A stretch of DNA of 64,000 nucleotides from a virus. The notes below the pieces were generated by a model, which worked only from the letters and a program-made list of their open reading frames with translations, made no database searches and had not been told where the DNA came from. The stretch spans positions 1 through 64,000 of the IMG/VR virus record IMGVR_UViG_3300017917_004503. One strand, written 5' to 3'. The position numbers were made by a program, and so were the translations under genes. Of the stretch, positions 11,513-63,800 are shown one piece after another; positions within the stretch are counted from its first letter, which is position 1, and each line of letters opens with the position of its first letter.

Positions 11513-11533
11513 AAAATTTTTACGGATTCAGCC

Positions 11534-11562
11534 GAAACTTTTTCCCAATTCTTAGCTAAAAT
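11534..11562 (+). promoter_or_regulatory. Middle-type promoter with no ORF directly downstream
   Basis: GAAAC-N18-TAAAAT. Confidence 0.6.
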
Positions 11563-11662
11563 CAATATCTATTGAGCCCCGGTTTGATATCCTATACTAT
11601 CTAAGAGGCCCTAAGGCCCAAACTTTAGTTTAACTTATACCCAAACCCAAAGCTTAAATACA

Positions 11663-11691
11663 GAAACTTCTTCACCTTTTTACAGTATGAT
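11663..11691 (+). promoter_or_regulatory. Middle-type promoter for uvsX operon
   Basis: GAAAC-N18-TATGAT. Confidence 0.7.
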
Positions 11692-11714
11692 TTATAAATA
11701 ATTTGACATAAATC

Positions 11715-20129: not shown

Positions 20130-20137
20130 AATATATA
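20130..20137 (+). promoter_or_regulatory. Late promoter motif inside a 12-bp inverted repeat
   Basis: AATATATA before GTG 20157. Confidence 0.65.
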
Positions 20138-23865: not shown

Positions 23866-26800
23866 ATGCCATTAACACCAGGATTACAATTACCCTTTGG
23901 AGTACAACCAGTCAACCCTGTACCGGTTGACACATACTCTGGCCCTTATTCGGGAGTAACTGAATCAGCTGCTCTGAGCTCTGCAAATTCTTCTATACCT
24001 GGAGCTTTAAGATTTCAGTCTTTAGAAGTTAGATTAATATACGGTCCAACCGGATCTGCAGTACCCTATAAATATTGGTATTATGGTGGAACCGGGGATA
24101 GTGATTTAGTTCTTTTTTCAGCTGGTGGATCTGGTGTAACAGGACCAACTGGAGCATCTGGTAGCTCTGGATCATCTGGTAGCTCTGGATCATCTGGTAG
24201 CTCTGGATCATCTGGTAGCTCTGGATCATCTGGAACATCAGGAAGCTCCGGAACATCAGGAAGCTCTGGAACATCAGGAAGCTCTGGAACATCAGGAAGC
24301 TCTGGAACATCAGGATCTAGTGGCTCGTCCGGAACATCTGGTTCGTCAGGTTCTAGTGGTTCAGCAGGAACATCTGGTTCGTCAGGTTCTAGTGGTTCAG
24401 CAGGAACATCTGGATTGTCCGGAGCAACTGGAACCTCTGGATCTAGTGGATCTACCGGAACATCAGGATCATCAGGAACTTCTGGATCTAGTGGATCATC
24501 AGGAACCTCTGGATCATCAGGAACCTCTGGATCTAATGGATCATCAGGATCATCAGGATCATCAGGAACCTCTGGATCATCAGGATCATCAGGAACCTCT
24601 GGATCATCAGGATCATCAGGAACCTCTGGATCTTCAGGATCATCAGGAACCTCTGGATCTTCAGGAACCTCTGGATCTAATGGATCTTCAGGATCATCAG
24701 GATCATCAGGTACTTCTGGATCTTCAGGATCATCAGGTACTTCTGGATCATCAGGATCCTCTGGAACTAGCGGTGTTACTGGTCCAACCGGAGCTAATGG
24801 TATATCTGCTGGACAAGTTTATTATTTCAATGAAAGCCAAAATTCTGATGTATCTGGATATAAGGTTTTATCTATAACCCCGAGTGGGGCAGCTGAACAA
24901 ACAGTAACTACGAATTTAACAGGTCTTCAGCAGAATGTTTTGATTTCTGATTATATTACACCTCAGCTTGGATTTAACGTTATACCTGCAGGAAATCAAA
25001 GATTTCATATTCATCTTTTAAAACCAGCTTCTAACGATAATATTTCTTTGTATGTAGAGATCCAGTTGGCGAATTCGTCTGGAACCCCAATAGGTCCAAC
25101 GATAACATCTAGCGTTGCATCTGTTGGTTGGGTTAGTTCAATAGTTCCAGATACTGTTGAGACTGACATCACTTTATCTACAACTACCATAGATCCAACT
25201 AATAGAATGATAGTTAGACTCTATCTTAATAATAACGACGCAACATCTCACAGCGTTGTATATTATACGGAAGGATCATCATACTATTCTTTCGTTCAAA
25301 CGTCGGTTGGAGCTATAGCAGGAACTAGCGGAACTTCTGGCTCGTCCGGATCATCAGGAAGTTCTGGCTCGTCCGGATCATCAGGAAGTTCTGGCTCATC
25401 AGGAAGTTCTGGATCTAGTGGTCAAGATGGTATTTCTGGAGGTAGACCTTACTTTTTCAATCAGTCTGTTACGCAGACCCCGTTATCATATAAACAACTT
25501 GGACAAAATACTACTGGAGGTATTCAGCAAACAGTAGTCACTAATTTAACATCAAACCAACAAAATGTTTTAGTTGAAAGTTTCATAACTGATGTCGATG
25601 ACCCGTATCTTCTTTTAATCCCACAGGGATTATGGCATTCTTATGTTTATTGGACAAAACCAGCACAAAATGATAATATAACTTATTATTTTACTGTAAC
25701 TAAAAGAACATCAGGAGGGACAGAAACTCTATTGTTTACATCCGATAATAAACAAATTGGATGGGATACTAATAACACTACTCCGGTTGAGGTTGTTGCG
25801 AATGGTGTTGTTCCAACTAACACGTTAAACCTTACCGATAGAATTATAGTAAGTCTATATCTGAATAATAATGAAAATTCCAGTAAAACAGTTACCTTTT
25901 ATACTGAAAATGCAACTTATTCATACATTATAACAACTTTAACAACTCCTTCTGGTACTTCGGGGTCGTCCGGTACTTCAGGGTCTAGTGGCTCTTCAGG
26001 AAGCTCTGGTACTTCTGGATCTAGTGGCTCTTCTGGCACTAGAGGTTCATCTGGTTCATCAGGCACATCTGGTTCATCAGGCACATCTGGTTCATCAGGC
26101 ACATCTGGTTCATCAGGTACTTCTGGACTTGCTGGTATATCAGGGATCAATGGATCTGATGGATCCTCAGGATCCTCAGGTTCTAGTGGAGTGACCGGTG
26201 CATCAGGGTCTTCTGGAAGCAGCGGATCTAGCGGAACGTCTGGATCTTCTGGAAGCAGCGGAACGTCTGGATCTTCTGGAAGCAGCGGAACGTCTGGATC
26301 TAGTGGAACATCCGGGTCTAACGGGTCTTCTGGAAGCAGCGGATCTAGTGGAACTTCAGGATCTAGTGGAACATCTGGATCTTCTGGAAGCAGTGGAACC
26401 TCAGGCTCTTCTGGTTCTAGTGGAACCTCAGGATCTTCTGGAATTAGTGGTTCACAGGGACCAACCGGTTCTACTGGATCTGTTAGCGGACTTGTTCAAT
26501 ATGCAGGTTTAACTTTTACCAGTGGACCTGGATCAGATCTACAAACAATATATAATACCTCTTTGGATCCATCAATAACAGTAGGTACTACCGTAGGCGG
26601 TATAGCAGCTGGTACTACCGCAGGATTTTTATTTGGAAAAAATTTAGTCCAACTTTTTGATGACATATTATTTCCAACTTTATTGCCAACTTACACAATA
26701 CCAACTATAACTTTAACTTCTTCTGTTACTGGAATTTATGAAATCGGAGCTACACTATCTCCAAACCTAACAGCTTCTGGAACTAAAAATGATGCTGGAG

Positions 26801-38695: not shown

Positions 38696-38703
38696 GATAT
38701 ATA
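38696..38703 (+). promoter_or_regulatory. Late promoter motif
   Basis: GATATATA before sheath gene. Confidence 0.7.
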
Positions 38704-43323: not shown

Positions 43324-43364
43324 TGTTTTCTGTTATATAATATAAAATAACAGAATTCTGTATT

Positions 43365-46228: not shown

Positions 46229-46291
46229 CATTGATTATCAACCCGTTTAAAAATTGTTAATGTTTGATTTTTTCTTCCCGTTTATTTTTAC

Positions 46292-46299
46292 TAGATTTG
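46292..46299 (+). promoter_or_regulatory. Bacteroidota housekeeping -7 element (TAnnTTTG), early promoter for cd/ECF sigma
   Basis: TAGATTTG 16 nt before ATG 46316; TTTG upstream at 46263 (spacing longer than canonical). Confidence 0.6.
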
Positions 46300-46315
46300 T
46301 AAAAATTCTCACAGT

Positions 46316-46921
46316 ATGGAAATCTCACTATCAACCGGAAGCTTTAGTACCTTTCTAGATTTTAACATTTTAGAATCCGGACTCATTGATGTAAACAACT
46401 GGAAGATCTCCCACAACAAAAATGATGGATTCAAAACTATCAAATGGGATAATTCTGAATATCTCAATCCTGAACTATTAACTCTACACGAAAACCAGAA
46501 ATTACTTAGGAATGATTTGATCTATTTAAAAATGGCTTCAATCTGGGGAAAAAATTCACATTGCAAAAGAATGCAAGTCGGGTGTCTTATGGTAAAAGAT
46601 AAATCTATTATATCTGACGGTTATAACGGATCACCCACAGGATTTCCTAATATTTGTGAAGATCAAGATATGACGACTTTACCGTATGTTTTACATGCAG
46701 AGGCCAATGCAATTACTAAATTAGCCAAAAGCACCCAAAGTTCAGATGGATCTACAATATATGTAACACTATCACCCTGTTACGAATGCTCTAAGTTAAT
46801 TATTCAATCAGGAATTAAAAGAGTAGTTTTTAATGAATTATATAGAAAACCTGAGTCTCTTCAATTTCTTTTTGAAGCAGGTATCGAAATTGTAAAAATA
46901 TCTAACCTTAACCAAATTTAA
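46316..46921 (+). CDS. cd: dCMP deaminase with N-terminal extension
   Basis: SHCKRMQVG, GYNGSP, HAEANAI, TLSPCYEC. Confidence 0.93.
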   Translation: MEISLSTGSFSTFLDFNILESGLIDVNNWKISHNKNDGFKTIKWDNSEYLNPELLTLHENQKLLRNDLIYLKMASIWGKNSHCKRMQVGCLMVKDKSIISDGYNGSPTGFPNICEDQDMTTLPYVLHAEANAITKLAKSTQSSDGSTIYVTLSPCYECSKLIIQSGIKRVVFNELYRKPESLQFLFEAGIEIVKISNLNQI

Positions 46922-46927
46922 GTTCAC

Positions 46928-47539
46928 ATGCAGCAATCTAAGGAAACCAACATTCAAAAATTAGCTGAAGATTTTATCAGCAAAAAAACCGACAAATCCT
47001 TTGCGGATCTTTTTAATCGTCTCAAACCCGGGGTTTCCAATCATTGTTTTCTCATTCTCAAGGACACTGAGCTTGCAGAGGATGCCTTTTTAAACACCAT
47101 GTCTAAAGTTTGGCAGAAGATAGATCAGTATAAATTAGAGAGAGGTAATTTTTCTACCTGGTGTTACAATATTGCCCGAAATGAATCTCTTTTACTAATG
47201 AAATCCAGAAAAAAACTGGTTAACCATGAAGAAATAGATTTAGAGTTTCTATCATCTAAAAACACCCTTGGGGAAATAGGCGGAGTTTACACAATAGAGG
47301 ATGATCCAGCATACGCATTCTTCAGTGAGGAGAACACCATCGACTCTGTCTATGAGTCTGTTTTGGACGAGATCAGATCATTACCCGAAACCTATAGAGA
47401 TATTATGATAGACCGTGAGATCCACGGTATGAAATATAAAGATATAGCTGATAAATATGGCATAAAGAAAAGATCGATTGCTACCAGAATCAGAAGAGCT
47501 AGAGGTAGAATAAGAAAGAAGATTGACGAGAAACAATAG
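46928..47539 (+). CDS. ECF-type RNA polymerase sigma factor
   Basis: AEDAF...KVW..I..Y, FSTWCYNIARN (region 2); LPETYR..M..R...GMKYKDIA......SIATRIRRAR (region 4). Confidence 0.92.
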   Translation: MQQSKETNIQKLAEDFISKKTDKSFADLFNRLKPGVSNHCFLILKDTELAEDAFLNTMSKVWQKIDQYKLERGNFSTWCYNIARNESLLLMKSRKKLVNHEEIDLEFLSSKNTLGEIGGVYTIEDDPAYAFFSEENTIDSVYESVLDEIRSLPETYRDIMIDREIHGMKYKDIADKYGIKKRSIATRIRRARGRIRKKIDEKQ

Positions 47540-47557
47540 CACAAAAAATCATATAAT
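47530..47557 (+). promoter_or_regulatory. Middle-type promoter in 3' end of ECF sigma gene
   Basis: GAAAC-N17-TATAAT. Confidence 0.6.
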
Positions 47558-47562
47558 CTAAT

Positions 47563-48006
47563 ATGTTAGCGATATTCAAATTTATAAAGGTCTGGAAAGA
47601 TGTAGCTATTTATAGGGATTATTTAAAGATAATAAAGAAAGAATCTCTAAATTCCCCTGTTTGGTCTAGAAAAAATCTGAGAAAGGATTGGTTCGGAAGA
47701 ATCTATACCGTCGTGAACTTACCCCCTGAAGTAATTTTTTCGGCTGATTTACCTAAAGAATCCAGACCATCGTTTGTTATGAATGAGATCAAGCCAATTA
47801 ACGACTATATGAAGTCTCTTAATCTCCAGGAGATATTAACTTTAAGTATAGAGGAGGTTGAGAGCACAAACGCTGAGTCTTATTTGGTTGTTTATCAATA
47901 TCTTTTTAGAGAGTTAAACTGGATTTGGATTTTTAGATTTGTGATCGAGTTGATTTTTATAACGACATTAATTATTAAATGGGATTGGATAATAAGCCTC
48001 TTTTAG
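47563..48006 (+). CDS. Hypothetical protein with C-terminal membrane anchor
   Basis: Hydrophobic C-terminus; follows middle promoter 47530. Confidence 0.55.
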   Translation: MLAIFKFIKVWKDVAIYRDYLKIIKKESLNSPVWSRKNLRKDWFGRIYTVVNLPPEVIFSADLPKESRPSFVMNEIKPINDYMKSLNLQEILTLSIEEVESTNAESYLVVYQYLFRELNWIWIFRFVIELIFITTLIIKWDWIISLF

Positions 48007-48818
48007 TACCTGGCCATGATCATCTCATGCAAGCTAAATCTGAAATTGAAAAAAAGCTTTTAGTCTTTAAAGATAAAAACTTTACTTTCGATGAAGATTC
48101 TCATACGTATAGGTTTAACGATATTAAATACGACTCTGTTACGACATTTCTTAAGACATTTAAAGTTCCCTTTGATCGTGAATATTGGTCGAGAAAAAAG
48201 GCTGAAGAGAGAGGCGTAGACGTTTCCGTTGTTTTGAATGAATGGCAAGAAAAAGCTAATAATGCGACTAGTTTAGGTACAAGAGTACATAAATACATTG
48301 AAGATTTTTGGAGCGGTGAAAATCCTGAATTTCCCAGTGATGAGAAATTGCTAGAGAGAATTCAGAGCTTTGTTGATATCTATAATAGAAAACTTCATGT
48401 TTTGCTTCCTCTTAAATCAGAGTTGAAAATTTTTTCAAGGAGATGGAGATTGGCTGGAACTATTGATCAGCCTTTTCTTTTTTGGTCTTTTCATCATGAA
48501 AGACCTTTTTTGATTATAGGAGATTGGAAGACTAATGGCGAATTTAGAGACGATTCCCACCCAAAGGGTAGATATAAAAAATTACTCCGACCTTTTTCAC
48601 ACCTTTACGAAAATCACCATAATGAATATTCTATACAGATTAGTCTCTATAGGTTAATTTTAGAAGAAGAAGCAAACATAGAAACTCAGGATGGATTTTT
48701 GTGTCACATAGGCCCAGAAGGACCTGCCAAAATCTATAGAACTAAAGATTTGAGAGAACCACTTAAAGTGTTTCTAGATCACAATAGAACTGAATTTGAT
48801 ATTTTTAATATTGATTAG
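47979..48818 (+). CDS. PD-(D/E)XK exonuclease
   Basis: HTY, SVTT, GTRVH..IE, SE...LAGTID, IGDWKT, YSIQISLY. Confidence 0.85.
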   Translation: MGLDNKPLLVPGHDHLMQAKSEIEKKLLVFKDKNFTFDEDSHTYRFNDIKYDSVTTFLKTFKVPFDREYWSRKKAEERGVDVSVVLNEWQEKANNATSLGTRVHKYIEDFWSGENPEFPSDEKLLERIQSFVDIYNRKLHVLLPLKSELKIFSRRWRLAGTIDQPFLFWSFHHERPFLIIGDWKTNGEFRDDSHPKGRYKKLLRPFSHLYENHHNEYSIQISLYRLILEEEANIETQDGFLCHIGPEGPAKIYRTKDLREPLKVFLDHNRTEFDIFNID

Positions 48819-48846
48819 AAACAAAAGTGGATAATTGATCTAAAAA
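48818..48846 (+). promoter_or_regulatory. Middle-type promoter
   Basis: GAAAC-N18-TAAAAA. Confidence 0.55.
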
Positions 48847-48862
48847 AAAGAAAAAGAAAAAT

Positions 48863-49387
48863 ATGGCAAATAATAAAGCATCCAAGAAAATGACAGAAAC
48901 CGGTCCTGGAGCATCATCAGAGGTAGATTTCCAAACCATGAATCCTGAATCTGATATTATGATAGATCAGGAATTAGTTAAATCACTTGAAAACAAAATC
49001 AAGGATAAAAAAGAGGAAATTAAAAACAAGGTTTATGCTATTACCTTCTCTGAAGATCTTCTACAGAAGTATGAAAAATTCATAAACGAAGAAGCTGAAT
49101 GGAATTCGACCGAGGCTATTGGAGTTAAAGAGATAGCTAAAAATATACAGAAAATAAAGAAGGATGGTGTAAAAAACGGTGTTATTTATCTAGGAGCACT
49201 GGCTTTAGAAGCTACCCATTATTTTATTTCTAAGAGTAAGGGCAAGGGCTTAAAACAAGCCGAAGCTTTCATTGATCTCTATAAACCTTTTGACCAGGCA
49301 CTATCTGATGCTAAGATGGATGCAGCAGAGGTAAAAGACCTAGATAAACAACTTGCTGCAGCAATGCAAGGCATTTCTTTAGGATAA
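48863..49387 (+). CDS. Hypothetical protein
   Basis: Clean ORF between middle promoter and terminator. Confidence 0.6.
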   Translation: MANNKASKKMTETGPGASSEVDFQTMNPESDIMIDQELVKSLENKIKDKKEEIKNKVYAITFSEDLLQKYEKFINEEAEWNSTEAIGVKEIAKNIQKIKKDGVKNGVIYLGALALEATHYFISKSKGKGLKQAEAFIDLYKPFDQALSDAKMDAAEVKDLDKQLAAAMQGISLG

Positions 49388-49406
49388 ATTACACACTAAA
49401 TAAAAC

Positions 49407-49436
49407 AAAACCAGTCATTTTTGATTGGTTTTTTTT
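49407..49436 (+). terminator. Intrinsic terminator
   Basis: AAAACCAGTCA-TTTT-TGATTGGTTTT plus T run. Confidence 0.75.
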
Positions 49437-49451
49437 GTGACTTTTAAATTT

Positions 49452-49459
49452 GATATATA
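49452..49459 (+). promoter_or_regulatory. Late promoter motif
   Basis: GATATATA after terminator. Confidence 0.65.
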
Positions 49460-49476
49460 AATGAAGTAAATTAATT

Positions 49477-49785
49477 ATGAAACAGCTACAAAAAATCAAA
49501 GAAAATTCTTGGGCAATAACTTTAGTTTTAAGTGTTTTGCTTTTCTTTAAACAATGCGGAGTTAGTAGGGATATTGATAGAATACAGAAGGATCTGAAAG
49601 TAATCTCTAAAAATGTTGATTCAACACAAAATCAACAGATGACTAAAGATGAGGTAAAACAAACTATGAATGAAGTTATGTTTGATTTCCTTATTTATGA
49701 AGACGATTTCGATAAAGGTAAATCTTCTCTATCAGATATTAAATCAAAAATTAAATCGTCGGTTGATGGAAAAGGCCAAGAATAA
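49477..49785 (+). CDS. Single-TM coiled-coil membrane protein
   Basis: WAITLVLSVLLFF segment then coiled coil; late motif 49452. Confidence 0.6.
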   Translation: MKQLQKIKENSWAITLVLSVLLFFKQCGVSRDIDRIQKDLKVISKNVDSTQNQQMTKDEVKQTMNEVMFDFLIYEDDFDKGKSSLSDIKSKIKSSVDGKGQE

Positions 49786-50449
49786 GTTAGTAAACGGTTT
49801 TATAATTAGCACCTTTGTTGGACTTTATTTAATCGTTTCAGTTATCTCTACTATCCACGTTATAGAGTTCTTCGAACTCTCTAATCCTAAGTGGCTCGCA
49901 ATCTCTTTGGCATTAGCTTTCGAAGTTGGTGCAGCAGCATCATTGTCATCACTTATAGTTCTTGATAAGATGAATAAATTTTTGGTTTGGATCTTGTTTA
50001 TAGTTTTAACATGTATGCAAGCTATGGGTAACACATATTATGCTTATACCCACATACACGATTTCCAATCATGGAGTGAGCTATTTGGTCTTGTCGATGA
50101 TGATTTAATATATCAGAAAAGATTGTTATCTATTATAAGTGGTGCAATTTTACCTTTAGTTTCATTGGGATTCATAAAATCTTTGGTTGATTACATTAGA
50201 CCAGAAGACAAAAAAGATGAAGTGCCAGAATCTGATTTAATAGAACCTTCTTTAGAGCCAGATTCTAAAGAAGATCCTTCAGAAATCTCAGATATTCTAA
50301 ATACTGAACAAATAGAAGAAGCTCAAGAAGCTCCTGTAGAAAATCCTATAATAGAACAGATAGAGCAACCGGTTGAAGTAGTGCAATCTATTAATAGAGG
50401 TAAAACTGGATACATTCCTCAGGATCTGAATCCAACAAAAATAAAATAA
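49766..50449 (+). CDS. Four-TM membrane protein with acidic tail
   Basis: ATG 49766; four hydrophobic segments then Glu/Pro-rich tail. Confidence 0.6.
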   Translation: MEKAKNKLVNGFIISTFVGLYLIVSVISTIHVIEFFELSNPKWLAISLALAFEVGAAASLSSLIVLDKMNKFLVWILFIVLTCMQAMGNTYYAYTHIHDFQSWSELFGLVDDDLIYQKRLLSIISGAILPLVSLGFIKSLVDYIRPEDKKDEVPESDLIEPSLEPDSKEDPSEISDILNTEQIEEAQEAPVENPIIEQIEQPVEVVQSINRGKTGYIPQDLNPTKIK

Positions 50450-50455
50450 GAAAAA

Positions 50456-51127
50456 GTGTCGAATAACAATCTTGATTTTGATGGGGGTTCAGCTCTATCC
50501 GTTGGAACCAATAATTTTCCTGGTGGATCTGCCGGATTTGCTCTGGATCCTATGGAAGGAACAACAGGGCCACAAACTTTCGTTACCACATATACTAACA
50601 TAGCCCAGAAAAAAGCTGATTTAACAAGAGTTAATGCAACTTTTAGGGATTTTAACGATCAGCCAGAAATTAAATTTATCAAGGAATCTTTTGATGTCAT
50701 TCAGCAAGCGGATACGCTCGATTATCTTGATGTTGCTTCTTTTTTTCATCCTCTCCAATCTTTTTCTGATTTCCAGAAGCAAACCTTTATAATTGGACCT
50801 AGAAATTCTGTTAATTTAGACCCTTCTGGATTCGAAGGAACATCTGGTGAAGCTTCAATGCTTATGGCAAGAGCTTATTACTTGCCAGAAACTGAAGAAG
50901 ATGAGAAAATATTGTTCTGGGATTATAAAGGAATGGGTAGGAATGTGATGGGTCAATTCATGGTTTTAACCGGAGCAATAAAAGAAGATTCTCATTGGAA
51001 GGGATGGGATTTAGATCCCTTTTCGACGTATGGACACACAGGACCTGCCGATTCTGCACAGGGTGGATTTATTTTCACTAATCCCACAGAACGAAATGTT
51101 AAATTAACAATAATAACAGCTAACTAA
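50456..51127 (+). CDS. Putative virion protein, paralog of downstream gene
   Basis: W.YKG...MGQFMVLTG...GW.L...GGFIFTN...VKL. Confidence 0.5.
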   Translation: MSNNNLDFDGGSALSVGTNNFPGGSAGFALDPMEGTTGPQTFVTTYTNIAQKKADLTRVNATFRDFNDQPEIKFIKESFDVIQQADTLDYLDVASFFHPLQSFSDFQKQTFIIGPRNSVNLDPSGFEGTSGEASMLMARAYYLPETEEDEKILFWDYKGMGRNVMGQFMVLTGAIKEDSHWKGWDLDPFSTYGHTGPADSAQGGFIFTNPTERNVKLTIITAN

Positions 51128-51130
51128 AAA

Positions 51131-51613
51131 ATGGCAACTCAACCGATAATTTGTCCTTATGAAGAGGGTACAGGATTTAGATTCCATAGAGGAAATCTCG
51201 TTTTAGATGAAGGTGGCATGAAACTCCCAGTTTATCTAGAATTAGGTGACATGTTCCAGGAAACACCAGCTTTTAGCAAAAGTAGGGTTTTTCTAAAAGC
51301 GGGTAAATGTTTTTTACTCAGCCAAACTAATATAGGCGATAATGACGGATATGTGTCATTCATAGCAGTTAAAGTTACATATCCTTCTTCTGTAGTTGAG
51401 TCTAAAAAATATTTGGAGTGGACATATTTAGGAAATACCTATTACATGGGTGAATTAATGGTTTTATCTGGTAAAAAGCTATCAACAACAGATTCTATAC
51501 AGGAGGGATGGTTTTTATCGAAACCTGGTGTTGAATCTCAATTAGGTGGTATAGTTTTTTGTAATACACATACTGATATAGACGTTAAAGTAGAAATACT
51601 TGTGTGTAAGTAA
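51131..51613 (+). CDS. Putative virion protein, paralog of upstream gene
   Basis: W.YLG...MGELMVLSG...GW.L...GGIVFCN...VKV. Confidence 0.5.
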   Translation: MATQPIICPYEEGTGFRFHRGNLVLDEGGMKLPVYLELGDMFQETPAFSKSRVFLKAGKCFLLSQTNIGDNDGYVSFIAVKVTYPSSVVESKKYLEWTYLGNTYYMGELMVLSGKKLSTTDSIQEGWFLSKPGVESQLGGIVFCNTHTDIDVKVEILVCK

Positions 51614-51635
51614 ACAAAAAATAAGATTTAGGTTA

Positions 51636-51676
51636 AATATATAGTAGAAAGTTTTCGTTCCCTATTGGGATATATA
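51636..51676 (+). promoter_or_regulatory. Tandem late promoter motifs
   Basis: AATATATA 51636 and GATATATA 51669. Confidence 0.65.
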
Positions 51677-51699
51677 ATAAGAATAAAAAAAACAAGACC

Positions 51700-54255
51700 A
51701 TGGATTTTATAAACCAAGTGAAAAAATTAAAAGAGCTAACTAAATCACCTGAAGTTAGACAAATCTGCGAGAAATATCTTAGCGGATCAAATGAGGTCTC
51801 AAAGGAACAGGTAGAGGCCGTTATTAATGAACAAGCTACTCCTGATGTTAAGAATCATTGGGATTCGATTGCTCAAGAGCAATTACAGGCTTCTAAAAAA
51901 GCCGCTCAAGCTCTTATGGAATCTTGGGGAGGTTTCGGAAGAGGATCTTCGAATTCTGGTTCTTATAAACCTTCGGTTAAGCAAGAAGAAAACACTTCAG
52001 CTCTTTTAGAGAATCTTAATACTATATCGATTGAAGATAACAACGCTAAATCTTTTGTTGAAGCTCAGAACTTAAAAAATCTTGGGATCTTAGAATCTAT
52101 TAACAAGATTAAAGGACTTTCTATTTCTGAATATCCTAAAGTTAAAATAGTTTGTGAGCAATACTCTAACTTAATCGTTAACAAAAACATTCCTGAGTTT
52201 TCTTTAATCAATGGATTTATCTCTGAAATGGAGTCTTTTAAATGGGACGTATCTATATTACCAGTCATAGAAAATCTAAAAGAAAAATCTTCTAGATTTT
52301 CAAGAGAAATCGAAGTTGCTAAAGTTATCGAATCTATAAAAACTAGTGGATCAGCTTCTTTTTATTCTGACTTGTCAGAATCGCTAAATTCTTGGTTAAT
52401 CTCTGAAAATAAATCCTCTGGATTATTAGCAAAAGAAATTAGTAAATGGTCTTTCAATCCTGTCGTTAGAAATCTAATCAATTTCTTAAATGCTAATGAA
52501 GCAAGTAACACATCTAAGCTGGAGTTACCTGTGAATGCTCAAAACGAGTCAAGGGTTTCTAGAATTTTTTCACCTATTTTAATCGAAGGTGAGACTACAT
52601 ATTTCACCGCAGGAAAGAGTATCTTCCAAATTAAAGATAGCTCGATAAAAAGATTAAATGAAAAAGAGATCGCTTCAGTTCCAGGAGAGTATATTTCTTT
52701 GGTTAACGCTTGTTTAAAACCTTATGTTCAAATTTCAGAAAGCGGAGTTAAAATATCTCTAGGTAAGAAATCTGTTAGCATTATCGAAGAGAAAGAAGAT
52801 GTTTCAGTTTATCTTGGTAAATCTAGATTAAACTTTAGATCAGTTGCAGAACTTGCTAAAATACTTGGTCTTGAATCTAGCAGCCATTTCGGAGTAAATG
52901 AGTCACAAGTAGTTGGAGATATTCTTAACATCTATACTAACTTCAGAAATATAGTAGAGCTTGATTTCGCTAAAAACATTTCGTCTAATATCTACGAAGG
53001 TGTTTCGGTTAATCTTATTAAATGGGATAATAATATCTTCTTACAGAGAATAAACGATGCAATGAGAGAAAATTCTGTTTATAAAGTTAATGGATCTCAA
53101 GCCGTGAAAATGGTTAAAGATTTCTTAAGATATGACATATCAGAGGGCTTAACTGAATTCTTGGATGGAGAACAGAAGATCAAGTCTATTATGGTAAATG
53201 ATAGAACTAAGGTCCTTGAAAACATCTCTCGTGTTGAATCAGAAGTTAACAAACTAGAGACATTGATGGAAAGCAATCCTCTTTATGCTGCTTCAAAGGA
53301 AATAAAATCAGCTCATGGATTATTAACCAGTGAACTTTCAGTTCTTAGAGAAAAATGGAATCAGATTAATCTTGAGATCTCTAAGATAGAATCAGAACCT
53401 AATATAGTATCAGATCTTTTTGAAGATCAAAAATTCAATATTGGCGATCTAGTTAAAATTAAAGAATCAGGTGAAACCGGAAAGATTATTTCTGTTGATG
53501 GAAGTTCTGGCAGATATACAATCCTTTTAGACAATGGAAGAACTTCGGATTACATGGTTAATGATATAGTTGATCTTGAAGAAGCATTAGCTCAAGCAGC
53601 AGAAAGAAACGAAGAAAAAGCTGGTGAAGATAGATCAGAGGAAGAAGGATCAGAAGAAATGAAGGAGTCAAACAACCTCAATAAATCTAATCTTTCAATC
53701 GAAGAACAGAAAAAACTTTTAAAAACTTTTTCAACAGGTCATTCTTTTTCTAAAGCTCCAGAAGACGAGAACGAAGAAATAGAAATGGAACTTGATAGCT
53801 TACATGGATACAATGTAACTATGAATGAAAAGAATCAAACAACAGCTAAAGCACCAGGCGATAGTAAATTAGAATCAGGTAAAGATGCTAATAAAAAGAA
53901 TCTAGCAACTGCACCAGGATCTCATAAAAAAGAAAAGGCAAAGGCTGAAGGTGAAGATTTATTAAGCGATAATGCACCTGAAACTAAAAAGAAAACCGAA
54001 TTTGATGGTAAAGATGCTGAAGGATCTAAATATGAAATCGGATATAACATCAGAGAAGGTAAAGCCGAAGACGAGGGTAATATGGTAGAAGCTCCTGAAA
54101 AGGGGAAAAATGCTAAAGAAACAACTGCTAAGGGTAACTTAGAAAAGATGATGAATTTGGCCGAGGCTCCAGGTAAAGAAGGTAATATTGATTTCGAAGT
54201 AAACGATGAAATGGGATATAACATTCAAGAATCCGACGAAGTAAAAAAAAACTAA
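51700..54255 (+). CDS. Large prohead core/scaffold-like protein with KOW/SH3-like domain and acidic repeat tail
   Basis: Coiled coils, FNIGDLVKIK..GETGKIISVD, repeated xAP and GYN[IV]xxE motifs; two late motifs upstream. Confidence 0.5.
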   Translation: MDFINQVKKLKELTKSPEVRQICEKYLSGSNEVSKEQVEAVINEQATPDVKNHWDSIAQEQLQASKKAAQALMESWGGFGRGSSNSGSYKPSVKQEENTSALLENLNTISIEDNNAKSFVEAQNLKNLGILESINKIKGLSISEYPKVKIVCEQYSNLIVNKNIPEFSLINGFISEMESFKWDVSILPVIENLKEKSSRFSREIEVAKVIESIKTSGSASFYSDLSESLNSWLISENKSSGLLAKEISKWSFNPVVRNLINFLNANEASNTSKLELPVNAQNESRVSRIFSPILIEGETTYFTAGKSIFQIKDSSIKRLNEKEIASVPGEYISLVNACLKPYVQISESGVKISLGKKSVSIIEEKEDVSVYLGKSRLNFRSVAELAKILGLESSSHFGVNESQVVGDILNIYTNFRNIVELDFAKNISSNIYEGVSVNLIKWDNNIFLQRINDAMRENSVYKVNGSQAVKMVKDFLRYDISEGLTEFLDGEQKIKSIMVNDRTKVLENISRVESEVNKLETLMESNPLYAASKEIKSAHGLLTSELSVLREKWNQINLEISKIESEPNIVSDLFEDQKFNIGDLVKIKESGETGKIISVDGSSGRYTILLDNGRTSDYMVNDIVDLEEALAQAAERNEEKAGEDRSEEEGSEEMKESNNLNKSNLSIEEQKKLLKTFSTGHSFSKAPEDENEEIEMELDSLHGYNVTMNEKNQTTAKAPGDSKLESGKDANKKNLATAPGSHKKEKAKAEGEDLLSDNAPETKKKTEFDGKDAEGSKYEIGYNIREGKAEDEGNMVEAPEKGKNAKETTAKGNLEKMMNLAEAPGKEGNIDFEVNDEMGYNIQESDEVKKN

Positions 54256-54410
54256 GTCGTAATTTTTACTTCGCACCGAAAGATAAGAATCAAAATTCAC
54301 CGGGACAAAAATTTGTAGATCCTATAGAAGGTAGAATGAGTAAAGCTCCAACAGGAAAGGAATCTGAAGAAATAGAGACTGATTCTGATTCACAGGAAGA
54401 TTCTAAATAA
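54252..54410 (+). other. -1 frame 52-codon extension of the 51700 gene behind A9C slippery run
   Basis: GTA AAA AAA AAC TAA; -1 frame reads LSRNFYFAPKDK...MSKAPTGKESEEIETDSDSQEDSK*. Confidence 0.7.
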
Positions 54411-54419
54411 TTTTAACAT

Positions 54420-54448
54420 GAAAAGAACGTAAAACCTACGTTCTTTTC
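54420..54448 (+). terminator. Intrinsic terminator
   Basis: GAAAAGAACGTA-AAACC-TACGTTCTTTTC followed by TTTT. Confidence 0.75.
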
Positions 54449-54452
54449 TTTT

Positions 54453-54481
54453 GAAATAAAATCCACCTTTAGTAGTATAAT
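54453..54481 (+). promoter_or_regulatory. Middle-type promoter for gp55
   Basis: GAAAT-N18-TATAAT right after terminator. Confidence 0.7.
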
Positions 54482-54503
54482 TATTTAAAATTATTGAATT
54501 TTA

Positions 54504-54863
54504 ATGGCTAAGGATTACGTAAAAAATAGCGATCTAATGGTTGCTATAATAGAATCAAAAAAAGCAGGCAAGCTAACACCCGATGCCATTGCTATGTTTG
54601 GACTTATGATACAGGGAATATCAAAGAAAATGGCATATAAGGATCCAGAAGATAAAGAGGACTGTATGGCTTTTGCTATGGAGGATCTTTGCAAATATTG
54701 GGATAGATTTAATCCTGAAAAATCAAATAACCCTTTTGCTTATTTCACACAAATTGCAAAAAATGGATTTGCAAAGGGATGGAAAAAAATACATCCACCA
54801 AAAAGTCCAAAAACTATACCGTTTAGTCATATTACAGGAGAAGATAACACATATAACATCTAA
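54504..54863 (+). CDS. gp55: Late transcription sigma factor (gp55-like, very short)
   Basis: YVKN..L, Y....KED, RFNPEKSNNPFAYFTQIAKNGF. Confidence 0.85.
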   Translation: MAKDYVKNSDLMVAIIESKKAGKLTPDAIAMFGLMIQGISKKMAYKDPEDKEDCMAFAMEDLCKYWDRFNPEKSNNPFAYFTQIAKNGFAKGWKKIHPPKSPKTIPFSHITGEDNTYNI

Positions 54864-55351: not shown

Positions 55352-55947
55352 TTCCATATTCACAGGAGGTGCTTCAGTATAAGAATTCGTATAAAAATTT
55401 ATCTGAGGTTGTTAGTAAAACTAACTCTAAATTTTCAGAAAAGTATTATAGAGATGCTAAACCCGAGAAACCCTTCTCTCTACCGTTTATACCTGGTCAA
55501 ATTTATAGCTTTTTCTATAAGACAACAAGCAAAATAACTCCGGAAAGAACTTTTATAAACAGAAATCCTGTTGTTCTTTGTACTGAATCTTTTCAAAACA
55601 AAGAAGGTGAGCTTATACTCAAGGGTATAGATTTAATAACAGTTCCTCCTGATTTGAGAATGATTATTCTTGAAAGAATTTATAACAGTTTCTATTATAA
55701 TATAAACCCAGGTTCCTACGAGAACCCAAAACCTATATTGCTTAATCACGAAACATTAAAGAAAATACTTACAGACACTGGATACTCGAGTTCATTATTT
55801 GGTTTTAGAACCAAATTTTTTGGTGAAATCTTTACCGTCGATGTTAAAGATTGGATCATGTTACCCTATCTAACAGAATCACTCATAGAAGGCACGAATT
55901 TACAAGGGATATATACGACATATAAATCGAAATTAATCCGAGAATAA
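55348..55947 (+). CDS. DNA end-protector-like protein (gp2-like)
   Basis: PGQIYSFFY...P.V...GIDL..VPP..R pattern; adjacent to gp4. Confidence 0.5.
   Translation: MIPYSQEVLQYKNSYKNLSEVVSKTNSKFSEKYYRDAKPEKPFSLPFIPGQIYSFFYKTTSKITPERTFINRNPVVLCTESFQNKEGELILKGIDLITVPPDLRMIILERIYNSFYYNINPGSYENPKPILLNHETLKKILTDTGYSSSLFGFRTKFFGEIFTVDVKDWIMLPYLTESLIEGTNLQGIYTTYKSKLIRE
55908..55915 (+). promoter_or_regulatory. Late promoter motif for portals (within gp2-like gene)
   Basis: GATATATA about 50 nt before portal 1 start. Confidence 0.55.
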
Positions 55948-55962
55948 ACACTAAAAAGAAGA

Positions 55963-59215: not shown

Positions 59216-59261
59216 TTTTTTATGTCCATTTAATCAATTTTTTTTTCGCGAAAAATTCATT

Positions 59262-59269
59262 TACTTTTG
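59262..59269 (+). promoter_or_regulatory. Bacteroidota housekeeping -7 element, early promoter for DNA ligase
   Basis: TACTTTTG 19 nt before ATG 59289. Confidence 0.6.
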
Positions 59270-60638: not shown

Positions 60639-60667
60639 GAAACAAGAATTAAAAATTCTACTAAAAA
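60639..60667 (+). promoter_or_regulatory. Middle-type promoter for gp44
   Basis: GAAAC-N18-TAAAAA. Confidence 0.6.
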
Positions 60668-63368: not shown

Positions 63369-63800
63369 ATGCAACTTTTTGATATAGTCAAGCTTATTTT
63401 CACTAACAAAGAATCCGAATGGAAAACTGTTGGAAAAAACGATAAAACCCGAAATTTCTTTATGATTAATCGGATTATGTCAATAAACTTTCCAGTTCAG
63501 GCAAACCAATTTAATAAACTGAAAGTAATACCCTTTCCTGTAGTTGATTGGTGGCACGATACACTCCACACCAGATACACGAGATCACCTCAGTGGATTT
63601 ATACGCAAACTAAAAAATCTAATGATTCTTCAAAATCTGACGATAAGAAAAATTTCGAAGCAACAGAAGATTTTATTAGATCTAAGTACAATATCTCAAA
63701 AAAAGATTTACAGCAAATAAAGAAATTCTATCCAAAGAAGTATGAAAAATGGTTAAACGATGTTTCTGAACAGGTTGGACTACAAACAAAGAATATATAA
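63369..63800 (+). CDS. Clamp loader small subunit (gp62-like)
   Basis: FFMINRIMS....ANQFN resembles gp62; near gp44. Confidence 0.5.
   Translation: MQLFDIVKLIFTNKESEWKTVGKNDKTRNFFMINRIMSINFPVQANQFNKLKVIPFPVVDWWHDTLHTRYTRSPQWIYTQTKKSNDSSKSDDKKNFEATEDFIRSKYNISKKDLQQIKKFYPKKYEKWLNDVSEQVGLQTKNI

Follow-up and report, generated by a model that had tools for sequence, protein, structure and literature searches.

Three conserved promoter classes suggest a sigma-factor relay in an uncultured huge T4-related phage of Bacteroidota

The cascade of the Bacillus phage SPO1 runs from host sigma-A to gp28 and then to gp33/gp34. The T4 programme uses sigma-70 for early genes, MotA/AsiA for middle genes, and gp55, gp33 and the gp45 clamp for late genes (PMC2988020), and a three-class scheme was proposed in silico by Buttimer et al. 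(2017) for the Rak2-like jumbo phages vB_PcaM_CBB and GAP32 (PMC5259590). In promoters of ECF sigma factors the AAC of the -35 box is retained and the -10 box differs from group to group; the -35 box of SigW is TGAAAC (PMC5758882). Huge phages of Bacteroidota (Lak-related, "Mahaphage"-type) abound both in guts and in environmental habitats, and because none of them has been cultured, their regulation is known from gene lists alone.

We analysed a stretch of 64,000 nucleotides (the window; positions 1 to 64,000 of the IMG/VR record IMGVR_UViG_3300017917_004503) from a contig that represents about half the genome (completeness ~52%) of a huge Bacteroidota phage, T4-related and uncultured, complete relatives of which have genomes of 319-430 kb. 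The contig carries T4-type core genes (UvsX, gp41-like helicase, gp46/47, clamp loader, portal, prohead protease, major head protein and sheath), nearly all of its genes lie on one strand, and homologues of the phage sigma in Lak, Chryseobacterium and Tenacibaculum phages hint at the host phylum. Motif enrichment was assessed in the 70 nt upstream of each of 127 plus-strand genes against 300 dinucleotide shuffles, and motif conservation was surveyed at orthologous gene boundaries of 160 related phage contigs or loci. Three promoter classes exist, each conserved at its own orthologous boundaries: an early type 5' of the operon of dCMP deaminase (cd) and sigma, a two-box type 5' of replication and glycan genes and of gp55, and a late box 5' of virion genes. 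Among the 160 contigs, the early class was kept at cd in 33/38 cases, the two-box class at gp55 in 44/49, and the late class at the sheath gene in 29/29 and at the 851-aa gene in 50/50. The E. coli-type TTGACA/TATAAT consensus was not enriched in the upstream windows of the contig.

From these patterns we infer that the motifs are promoters, that the classes follow one another in time, and which sigma is paired with which motif. The host RNA polymerase core would be handed from sigma to sigma to time the phage genes: host sigma-A would read the early promoters (tier 0; here a phage-specific element lies upstream of a host-type -7 box), which in complete relatives would also drive a phage copy of sigma-A; an ECF-type sigma with sigma-2 and sigma-4 domains would read GAAAY-N18-cTAnAA promoters (tier 1); and a gp55-like protein with sigma-2 only would read the single late box before virion genes (tier 2). 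Judged from sequence, this relay from host sigma-A through the phage ECF-like sigma to the gp55-like sigma appears reasonably probable. Among its parts, the pairing of the two-box class with the ECF-like sigma is probable, the late box is very likely read by the gp55-like protein, and it is equally likely that host sigma-A, possibly jointly with the phage sigma-A copy, reads the early class. The domain make-up agrees: two sigma domains suit a two-box motif of fixed spacing, and the single domain of the gp55-like protein suits a lone box. As in an SPO1-type cascade, each phage sigma gene follows a promoter of the class assigned to the tier before it, the ECF-like gene behind an early box in 38/38 sequences and gp55 behind a two-box promoter in 44/49.

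The ECF-type sigma (Table 1) matches PF04542 at residues 28-94 and PF08281 at residues 143-194 and has no region 3 match, i.e., it consists of sigma-2 and sigma-4 only. It scores 70.3 bits against the ECF superfamily model TIGR02937 (cut-off 42.9) and stays below the cut-offs of the subfamily models TIGR02985 and SigW; its domain set, its length of ~200 aa, the absence of regions 1.1 and 3 and the curated score are those of the ECF (group 4) family. The closest solved structure is SigW (5wuq; E 3.5e-10, full length), all PDB sequence matches are ECF sigmas, and among five genomes of the clade regions 2 and 4 hardly vary. Two usual ECF traits are missing, which counts against the relay. One is autoregulation, common in the family though not universal: of 38 lineages, 33-38 have the early class upstream of the sigma's own operon and none has the two-box class. 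The other is a recognisable anti-sigma: the membrane-anchored 147-aa protein encoded downstream of the sigma gene, a candidate for this role, matched no anti-sigma domain and had no family, atlas or motif support. The sole significant PDB match of the gp55-like protein is T4 gp55 (7d7c, chain 7d7c_F; E 4e-4), with residues 4-109 aligned to residues 9-126 of 185, so that it ends at the equivalent of T4 residue 126 and has no C-terminal clamp-binding tail; it is 84-92% identical across the clade. The hairpin before its promoter is conserved at the same position in relatives.

Table 1. Genes, terminators and putative promoters of the window, in order of position
Feature	Position	Strand	Evidence
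Two tandem two-box promoters (11534, 11663), UvsX-helicase-SbcCD operon	11534..11691	+	motif and PWM
Late box, tail-sheath gene	38696..38703	+	conserved 29/29
Early-class promoter, cd-sigma operon	46268..46299	+	T-run, CG at 46279-46280, 11 nt, TAGATTTG at 46292-46299; ATG 16 nt on
dCMP deaminase (cd), first gene of early operon	46316..46921	+	phrog_174 E 3.9e-52; PF00383
ECF-type sigma, 203 aa	46928..47539	+	PF04542 (Sigma70_r2) and PF08281 (r4_2); TIGR02937
Two-box promoter GAAAC-N17-TATAAT over stop codon of sigma gene	47530..47557	+	conserved 48/62 lineages
147-aa protein, conserved, C-terminal hydrophobic anchor	47563..48006	+	no Pfam, PHROG or NCBIfam match
Exonuclease	47979..48818	+	phrog_298 E 3.9e-33
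Two-box promoter GAAAC-N18-TAAAAA, 174-aa gene	48818..48846	+	PWM score 23.4; 48/50 distinct orthologous sequences
Intrinsic terminator, hairpin then T-run	49407..49432	+	
Late box GATATATA, 49477 gene block	49452..49459	+	conserved 42/46
Tandem late boxes, 851-aa gene	51636..51676	+	AATATATA at 51636, GATATATA at 51669
Terminator hairpin (12-bp stem) and U-run, directly upstream of gp55 promoter	54420..54448	+	fold -15.2 kcal/mol, z = -6.4
Two-box promoter GAAAT-N18-TATAAT, gp55 and head-completion gene	54453..54481	+	44/49 lineages, variable spacer
gp55-like late sigma, 119 aa, sigma-2 domain only	54504..54863	+	phrog_234 E 4e-16; PF04542 26.1 bits
Late box, first portal gene	55908..55915	+	late box 47/47 lineages
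Early-class promoter, DNA ligase gene	59238..59269	+	T9-CGCG-N11-TACTTTTG; conserved 33/39
Two-box promoter, clamp-loader gene	60639..60667	+	conserved 25/39

The bare TAnnTTTG box, named as the early motif in the initial annotation, is statistically indistinguishable from chance: it occurs genome-wide 80 times on the plus and 81 times on the minus strand and falls in 6 of the 127 upstream windows, where 4.7 were expected. The extended form, T-run..CG-N11-TAnnTTTG, is enriched on the contig (3 vs 0.06 expected), with three intergenic sites (46279, 59249 and 65798) that would serve cd and the ECF-type sigma, DNA ligase and a 3'-5' exonuclease; in one complete relative it was found 25 times on the plus and twice on the minus strand. 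Its consensus is a-T7-atcy-CG-N11-TAnATTTG-c, and upstream of the cd-sigma operon 33 of 38 distinct orthologous sequences show the full architecture and all 38 the TAnnTTTG box. TAnnTTTG is the -7 box of the Bacteroidota sigma-A promoter (-33/-7 type), and TAnnTTTG-C is common to the phage early promoters and to promoters upstream of cellular rpoD genes, a further pointer to the host phylum. At the position of the -33 TTTG the phage early sites carry a T7 run and CG instead, features that are rare in the sampled host sites (T-run 5/41, CG 3/41). When the complete relative G004 was searched for promoter classes beyond these three, nothing emerged but a subclass of the early type (T7-ATCTGG-N11-TACATTTA-CACC) and a repeated hairpin ahead of start codons.

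The two-box motif GAAAY-N18(+/-1)-TAnAA is present in 12 of the 127 upstream windows vs 1.1 +/- 1.0 expected, a count reached by 0/300 shuffles. Relaxed regular expressions gave chance matches in AT-rich DNA and were replaced by a position weight matrix (PWM) trained solely on sites of other phages, which found 12 matches on the plus and one on the minus strand, vs 1.8 in simulated sequence. With the consensus GAAAY-N18-cTAnAA, about 12-15 sites on the contig stand before recombination, replication, nucleotide and glycan genes and the gp55-like gene; the spacing of the boxes is fixed while the spacer sequence varies. The ten gene boundaries at which GAAAY-N18(+/-1)-TAWAAW had been described all carry the motif, with a spacer of N19 at 608 (a true gene boundary, the epimerase starting at ATG 654), N17 at 47530 and TATGAT as the -10 box at 11663. 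At 47530 both boxes vanish together in lineages without the intergenic gap. In Lak-B5, LR756500 and MA9V-1 the region before gp55 shows no two-box motif, so the wiring cannot be extended to these phages. A GAAAC pair upstream of the RpoD-like gene (see below) of G004 was discarded, not being conserved in the other three genomes.

RATATATA was found in 25 of the 127 upstream windows (1.9 +/- 1.3 expected; 0/300 shuffles reach the observed number) and genome-wide 37 times on the plus and 3 times on the minus strand; GATATATA, with 24 plus-strand and no minus-strand occurrences, is enriched in non-coding DNA (p ~2e-23). The late consensus tG(G/A)ATATATA(A/G) lies ~20 nt before virion genes at about 21-27 sites, and no column is conserved further upstream, i.e., it is a lone -10-type A/T-rich box without a -35 element. 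Both boxes of the tandem pair at the 851-aa gene are kept in 48/49 distinct sequences, down to ~38% protein identity. Six AATATATA sites sit 2-6 nt from the start codon; the site at 20130 has an in-frame GTG 19 nt downstream, and the one at 63792 is just 4 nt from an ATG, yet it is conserved in 19/24 lineages. A two-box match at 55929 overlaps the portal late box and is present in 31/47 lineages. Another RATATATA, at 26547, which the initial annotation does not list, lies inside a coding sequence and is probably due to chance. All positions listed by the initial annotation (12 RATATATA and 10 two-box sites, and TAnnTTTG at 46292 and 59262) were recovered; enrichment upstream of genes held for the late (25 vs 1.9) and two-box (12 vs 1.1) motifs and failed for bare TAnnTTTG (6 vs 4.7), for which the extended form (3 vs 0.06) has to be substituted.

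Complete relatives encode a third phage sigma, RpoD-like and derived from Bacteroidota sigma-A, whose gene follows an early-type promoter. With it the system comprises four or more sigmas, and there is a second candidate for the role of reader. This protein is just 43-50% identical among relatives, and its region 4.2 recognition helix varies among four genomes; regions 2.3-2.4 are invariant, with a region 2.3 signature common to >600 Bacteroidota genomes. Because Lak and LR756500 hold all three sigma types, the candidate readers are inseparable by sigma presence or absence in distant phages. The wiring agrees with the cascade from host sigma through ECF sigma to gp55 that had been proposed, but the third sigma of the complete relatives and the incompleteness of the contig weaken it. 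In line with the accompanying proposal that the cascade replaces MotA/AsiA, these two proteins are absent: PF09114 and PF09010, which find the T4 genes (E 3e-63 and 2e-43), gave no match in the contig and three complete relatives (G000, G001, G003, G004). In the same four genomes phrog_254 returned nothing credible for gp33 (T4 gp33 control E 1.6e-33), and in four clade genomes PF02916 (T4 gp45 control E 2.9e-35) and PF09116 returned nothing for gp45. Iyer et al. reportedly found gp33 orthologues in group 2 jumbo phages in 2021, so a divergent gp33 may have escaped detection. The gp55 homologue and the lone A/T box agree with the gp55 mode of late transcription put forward earlier, but with gp33 and gp45 undetected, the late mechanism may differ from that of T4. 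A more far-reaching scheme, which we consider doubtful, is a four-sigma relay without the T4 accessories, in which the phage sigma-A copy, with its relaxed -35-reading helix, would take the early promoters marked by T7..CG, the ECF-type sigma without anti-sigma or autoregulation would be a dedicated middle sigma, and the truncated gp55 would drive late genes without gp33 or clamp, uncoupling transcription from replication.

The assignment of the two-box class to the ECF-like sigma is favoured by the -35 GAAAC, which matches the TGAAAC of SigW, the closest solved homologue. It is unlikely that the class is read instead by an RpoD-like (sigma-A-derived) phage sigma on the missing half of the genome, with a narrower regulon or host genes left to the ECF-type sigma. 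In CBB and GAP32, middle promoters of the TGAAAC type precede gp55 and genes of DNA synthesis, yet no ECF-type sigma is detectable, CBB having only an RpoD-like one (PMC5259590); by parsimony, the reader of the two-box class may therefore be RpoD-like. The CBB protein is a distant homologue of the RpoD-like sigma of the clade (28% identity, E 2e-10), which stands behind an early-type promoter in all complete relatives, and several two-box sites of the contig carry a perfect TATAAT as -10 box, as would suit an RpoD-like reader. However, the region 4.2 helix of the clade's RpoD-like sigma varies freely in four genomes with an invariant GAAAC box, whereas regions 2 and 4 of the ECF-like sigma are almost invariant alongside the motif; region 2.3 of the RpoD-like sigma, being of the type known from Bacteroidota sigma-A, points to a TAnnTTTG-like box as its target; and the -10 box of the clade (of 94 sites, 4 have TGn and 3 an exact TATAAT, and most end in A) is without the TGn and final T that are seen at CBB sites and would be usable by a region-3 sigma. 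Both the invariance and the -10 box would favour the ECF-like reader. Much less probable is a host alternative (ECF) sigma as reader, with the phage ECF-like sigma uninvolved. ECF sigmas are indeed numerous in Bacteroidota and an AAC-type -35 box is generic for the ECF group (PMC5758882), and the best NCBIfam match of the phage sigma, below cut-off, is the Bacteroides expansion family TIGR02985; but host ECF sigmas are normally kept inactive by anti-sigmas, the motif stays the same, as does the phage ECF-like sigma that accompanies it, throughout a clade of phages that must have different hosts, and the similar -35 box in Enterobacteria phages (PMC5259590) means that it tracks the phage and not the host.

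For the late box, the RpoD-like sigma has an invariant region 2.3-2.4 and a variable region 4.2, which could suit a -10-only promoter, and the gp55 partners gp33 and gp45 are undetectable; a sigma-A-derived late reader (region 2 conserved, region 4 relaxed), with another role for the gp55-like protein, is nevertheless very improbable, because the latter is a direct homologue of T4 gp55, the reader of a lone TATAAATA box (PMC2988020), GATATATA equals TATAAATA at 6/8 positions, the protein is conserved in step with an invariant late box, and its gene stands behind a two-box promoter, as a later tier would predict. Least probable of all is that the motifs are other conserved signals (RNA processing, translation-initiation context, packaging or replication), although the six AATATATA sites mentioned above are too near the start codon for a classical leader and A/T-rich start contexts are used by Bacteroidota (PMC6847099). 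Against this, the motifs are strictly strand-biased and lie 10-60 nt before the genes that open operons, often right after terminators, a constant distance between two boxes with a changing sequence in between is characteristic of sigma binding, each class matches the functional gene set expected of it, and Rfam gave no match within the window.

What is gained for these phages is an explicit consensus for three promoter classes, a wiring conserved over >100 contigs and a reasoned assignment of readers, which turns sigma-gene lists into a model that in vitro transcription can test. For work in Bacteroidota, the ECF-type sigma and the three kinds of promoter could also be of use as orthogonal expression parts. 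As in SPO1, successive phage sigmas, each encoded behind the class of the preceding tier, would redirect the host core from early to middle to late genes; the proteins are unrelated, however, the last tier here is a T4-type sigma-2-only protein, and complete relatives have an extra sigma-A-derived phage sigma. With T4 the phage shares core genes, a sigma-2-only gp55 homologue and a single 8-nt A/T late box without -35 element (6/8 match to TATAAATA), whereas it has no MotA/AsiA and no detectable gp33/gp45, its genes lie nearly all on one strand, its gp55-like protein of 119 aa is without the C-terminal third (the clamp-binding end) of T4 gp55, and its middle tier would use a sigma factor in place of sigma appropriation.

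The sigma gp36 of phiEco32 (PMC12276001) is likewise compact, a linker connecting its sigma-2-like domain to a sigma-4-like one; early transcripts that depend on sigma-70 give rise to it, and the phage promoters that it reads are middle and late. It differs in using one motif (AATGTA, centred at -11.5) for both, in needing gp79 and in its host, E. coli, and it is not known to be followed by a gp55-type third tier. SigW of B. subtilis (ECF01) reads TGAAAC-N16-CGTA promoters with an identical -35 GAAAC and similar spacing (PMC5758882; PDB 5wuq), but its -10 box is CGTA where the phage has cTAnAA, and the phage sigma has no recognisable anti-sigma and is not autoregulated from its own class. CBB and GAP32 come closest: they are T4-superfamily jumbo phages in which host-type early promoters also drive an RpoD-like phage sigma, promoters with TGAAAC(G) as the -35 box form a second class before DNA-synthesis genes and a gp55-like gene, an A/T-rich single-box late motif precedes structural genes, and homologues of gp33 and gp45 were not found (PMC5259590); the RpoD-like sigma of our clade is distantly homologous to CBB_513. 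They differ in that no ECF-type sigma was detected in CBB, in that its second class is TGAAAC-N14-TGnTATAAT with an extended -10 at 9/9 clear sites, as opposed to GAAAY-N18-cTAnAA without TGn and final T, and in having TTGACA/TATAAT early promoters and ATAAATA late boxes, whereas those described here are of the Bacteroidota -7 type and GATATATA, respectively. An analogous scheme has thus already been published for Rak2-like phages (2017), and the variant features of the present phage are its ECF-type middle sigma and its Bacteroidota-type early promoters.

The viral contig whose first 64 kb form the window is 151,373 bp long (G+C 34.5%; completeness ~52% by CheckV), with 128 of 134 called genes on the + strand and a coding share of 97%. 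It carries T4-superfamily genes for UvsX, a DnaB/gp41-like helicase, SbcCD (gp46/47), clamp loader, ligase, large terminase, sheath, tube, head-completion protein, two portals, prohead protease and major head protein; its IMG/VR relatives reach sizes of up to 319-430 kb, some with terminal repeats. Among phages, its sigma genes have their nearest homologues in the Lak megaphages of Prevotella, in other huge-phage assemblies, and in Chryseobacterium and Tenacibaculum phages; the host is therefore a member of the Bacteroidota.

The three motif classes described in the initial annotation were confirmed, the early one in an extended form, and comparative data from 160 loci of related phages strengthen them. 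We regard the conservation of class at individual gene boundaries as the strongest result: every boundary retains its own class despite the divergence around it (identities 65-92% for the ECF-like sigma, 78-94% for gp55, down to ~40% for other proteins), and operon-internal genes show essentially none of the three. Upstream of gp55 the order is terminator hairpin, GAAAY, a fixed-length spacer of free sequence, and TA(A/G)AA; where no intergenic gap follows the sigma gene, both two-box elements are missing together.

Sigma genes, selected boundaries and conservation of predicted promoter classes in related phages
Feature	Positions	Properties	Class upstream (conserved/compared)
dCMP deaminase gene	46316-46921		early 33/38 (box alone 38/38)
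Ligase gene			early 33/39
ECF-like sigma gene	46928-47539	203 aa; regions 2 and 4 only; passes ECF superfamily model
Gene directly 3' of ECF-like sigma gene	47563-48006	147-aa conserved protein; C-terminal hydrophobic anchor	two-box 48/62
174-aa gene			two-box 48/50
gp55-like gene	54504-54863	119 aa; sigma-2 domain only; PHROG late-sigma family match	two-box 44/49
Clamp loader gene			two-box 25/39
Intergenic region before UvsX	11513-11714	202 nt; two tandem predicted two-box promoters, ~130 nt apart
Sheath gene			late 29/29
506-aa gene			late 18/18
102-aa gene			late 42/46
851-aa gene			late 50/50 (both tandem boxes 48/49)
First portal gene, predicted promoter region	55908-55957	overlapping two-box match at 55929	late 47/47; two-box 31/47 (lineages)
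380-aa gene	43365	preceded by TTATATAATATAAAAT after weak hairpin (43330-43364)	not conserved: late 1/48; two-box 3/48

There are 37 copies of the late box, RATATATA, on the + strand against 3 on the - strand; for GATATATA the counts are 24 and 0. More than half of the RATATATA sites lie in non-coding DNA, itself 2.7% of the genome, of which GATATATA is the most enriched 8-mer (p ~2e-23). ATATATA cores fall within 70 nt 5' of a + strand start in 27 of 38 cases, and the box is present in 25 of 127 upstream windows vs 1.9 +/- 1.3 when these windows are shuffled with their dinucleotide content preserved, which together with the strand bias shows that it is real. Its consensus is t-G-G/A-ATATATA-A/G, with no conserved position further upstream, and the genes that follow include those for sheath, tail fibres, portal, prohead protease and major head protein and the head-closure and terminase operon. 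Six AATATATA sites lie only 2-6 nt from an ATG and are harder to see as classical promoters; the single testable one, at 63792, is kept in 19 of 24 lineages. The first portal gene, with its overlapping late and two-box matches, may be active in the middle as well as the late phase. The element before the 380-aa gene falls just short of the late box.

The two-box motif, GAAAY-N17-19-TAWAAW, was found 23 times on the + strand (13 sites touching non-coding DNA) and 9 times on the - strand (11.4 expected per strand), and in 12 upstream windows vs 1.1 +/- 1.0 in dinucleotide-preserving shuffles. A PWM trained solely on orthologous sites of other phages gave 12 matches on the + strand and 1 on the - strand (1.8 in simulated sequence), nearly all <50 nt from a start codon. 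The motif is thus real, and all ten sites first listed for it hold, with small deviations (N19 at 608, N17 at 47530, TATGAT at 11663). It precedes epimerase, glycan and glycosyltransferase operons, UvsX-helicase-SbcCD, two exonucleases, the clamp loader, a dTMP-kinase-like gene and gp55. Between the tandem sites before UvsX lies G+C-rich sequence, and Rfam gave no family match in this intergenic region.

For the early class, the bare TAnnTTTG box originally proposed shows no enrichment 5' of genes (found in 6 windows, with 4.7 expected) and is equally common on both strands (80 vs 81). What stood is the extended form conserved by footprinting (T-run, ..CG, 11 nt, TAnnTTTG), with exactly three intergenic sites on the contig vs 0.06 expected, preceding the dCMP deaminase-sigma genes, ligase and a 3'-5' exonuclease. 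One complete relative, G004, has 25 copies of it on the coding strand vs 2 on the other (20 sites non-coding), mostly in the genome part missing from the contig. In the promoters of 80 cellular Bacteroidota rpoD genes the TAnnTTTG-C box is shared with the phage, but the T-run (5/41) and CG (3/41) are rare there. The early class therefore joins a -7 box of host type to an upstream element specific to the phage. On the G004 reverse complement, a tightly conserved early subclass (T7-ATCTGG-N11-TACATTTA-CACC, the box ending in A, not G) lies at 293-306 kb, near one genome end, and may represent immediate-early promoters; the hairpin CTTCCCACTTGTAGTAAGTGG, absent from the contig, recurs seven times at 218603-227650, each time 10-15 nt ahead of a start codon in one gene block, and may be a translational operator.

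The proposed cascade, from host sigma through phage ECF sigma to gp55, is supported in part: its wiring is real, but one or more further phage sigmas belong to it, and the pairings of sigmas with motifs are inferred. Three sigma-like genes are present in each of four complete relatives, and all three types also occur in Lak phages and LR756500; minimal and RpoD-like sigmas were already noted in this jumbo-phage group by Iyer et al. 2021 (PMC7824862). The third, RpoD-like sigma (298-305 aa; regions 1.2, 2, 3 and 4), whose gene escaped the initial annotation because it is absent from the contig, is encoded far from the other two, behind a predicted early-class promoter in 4/4 genomes. The signature of its region 2.3 is shared by 287-aa proteins (38-42% identity) from >600 genomes, nearly all of Bacteroidota; these proteins are evidently the phylum's primary sigma-A. 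The closest solved relative of the ECF-like sigma is B. subtilis SigW. The gene 3' of it has its own predicted two-box promoter, overlapping the sigma stop codon, and sits where an anti-sigma usually is; its product has no family match. The 851-aa gene ends in an A9 run (region 54241-54431), where a frame shift would add ~58 residues, stopping just before the terminator, and the 248-nt gap 5' of gp55 is therefore probably mostly coding, via sequencing error or slippage.

The two-box class is probably read by the ECF-like sigma, since its two DNA-reading domains suit a two-box motif and SigW, its closest characterised homologue, reads TGAAAC at -35; ECF promoters generally retain AAC at -35, with -10 boxes that differ by group (PMC5758882). 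Its regions 2 and 4 are, like the motif, almost invariant across five genomes, whereas identity in the RpoD-like sigma is only 43-50% and its region 4.2 helix, invariant in cellular sigma-A, varies freely among the phage copies. The -10 box, cTAnAA (last position mostly A), also favours the ECF-like sigma, because the features on which a region-3 sigma would draw are missing from it (TGn is seen at 4/94 sites, exact TATAAT at 3/94).

That the RpoD-like sigma reads this class instead seems unlikely, even though phage CBB, with a TGAAAC-type class before gp55 (PMC5259590), has an RpoD-like sigma only. Buttimer et al. 2017 (PMC5259590) had deduced three classes for the Rak2-like phages CBB and GAP32: an early RpoD-like one, one with TGAAACG/TATA preceding gp55 and genes of DNA synthesis, and a late one with ATAAATA. 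The CBB sigma is a distant homologue of the RpoD-like sigma described here, and no ECF-like sigma was found in CBB, even with a profile of the clade's proteins. However, the CBB sites read TGAAAC-N14-TGnTATAAT in 9/9 clear cases, an extended -10 promoter suiting a sigma with region 3; the -35 box is common to both two-box classes, whereas the -10 module differs.

In line with the initial annotation, in which the cascade replaces MotA/AsiA, profiles for these two proteins, like those for gp33 and the gp45 clamp, matched nothing in the contig or three complete relatives (T4 as positive control). The clade is T4-like in its late sigma and single-box promoter, because the gp55-like protein consists of sigma-2 only and the late box agrees with T4 TATAAATA at 6/8 positions. 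T4 gp55 is the sole significant PDB match of this protein (aligned to residues 9-126 of 185), which is without the C-terminal third of its T4 counterpart; the remaining hallmarks of T4 late transcription (PMC2988020) were not found in the clade, and divergent partners are possible. A very similar scheme has already been published for other jumbo phages (PMC5259590); new here are the Bacteroidota-type early promoters and, probably, an ECF-type sigma as the middle tier.
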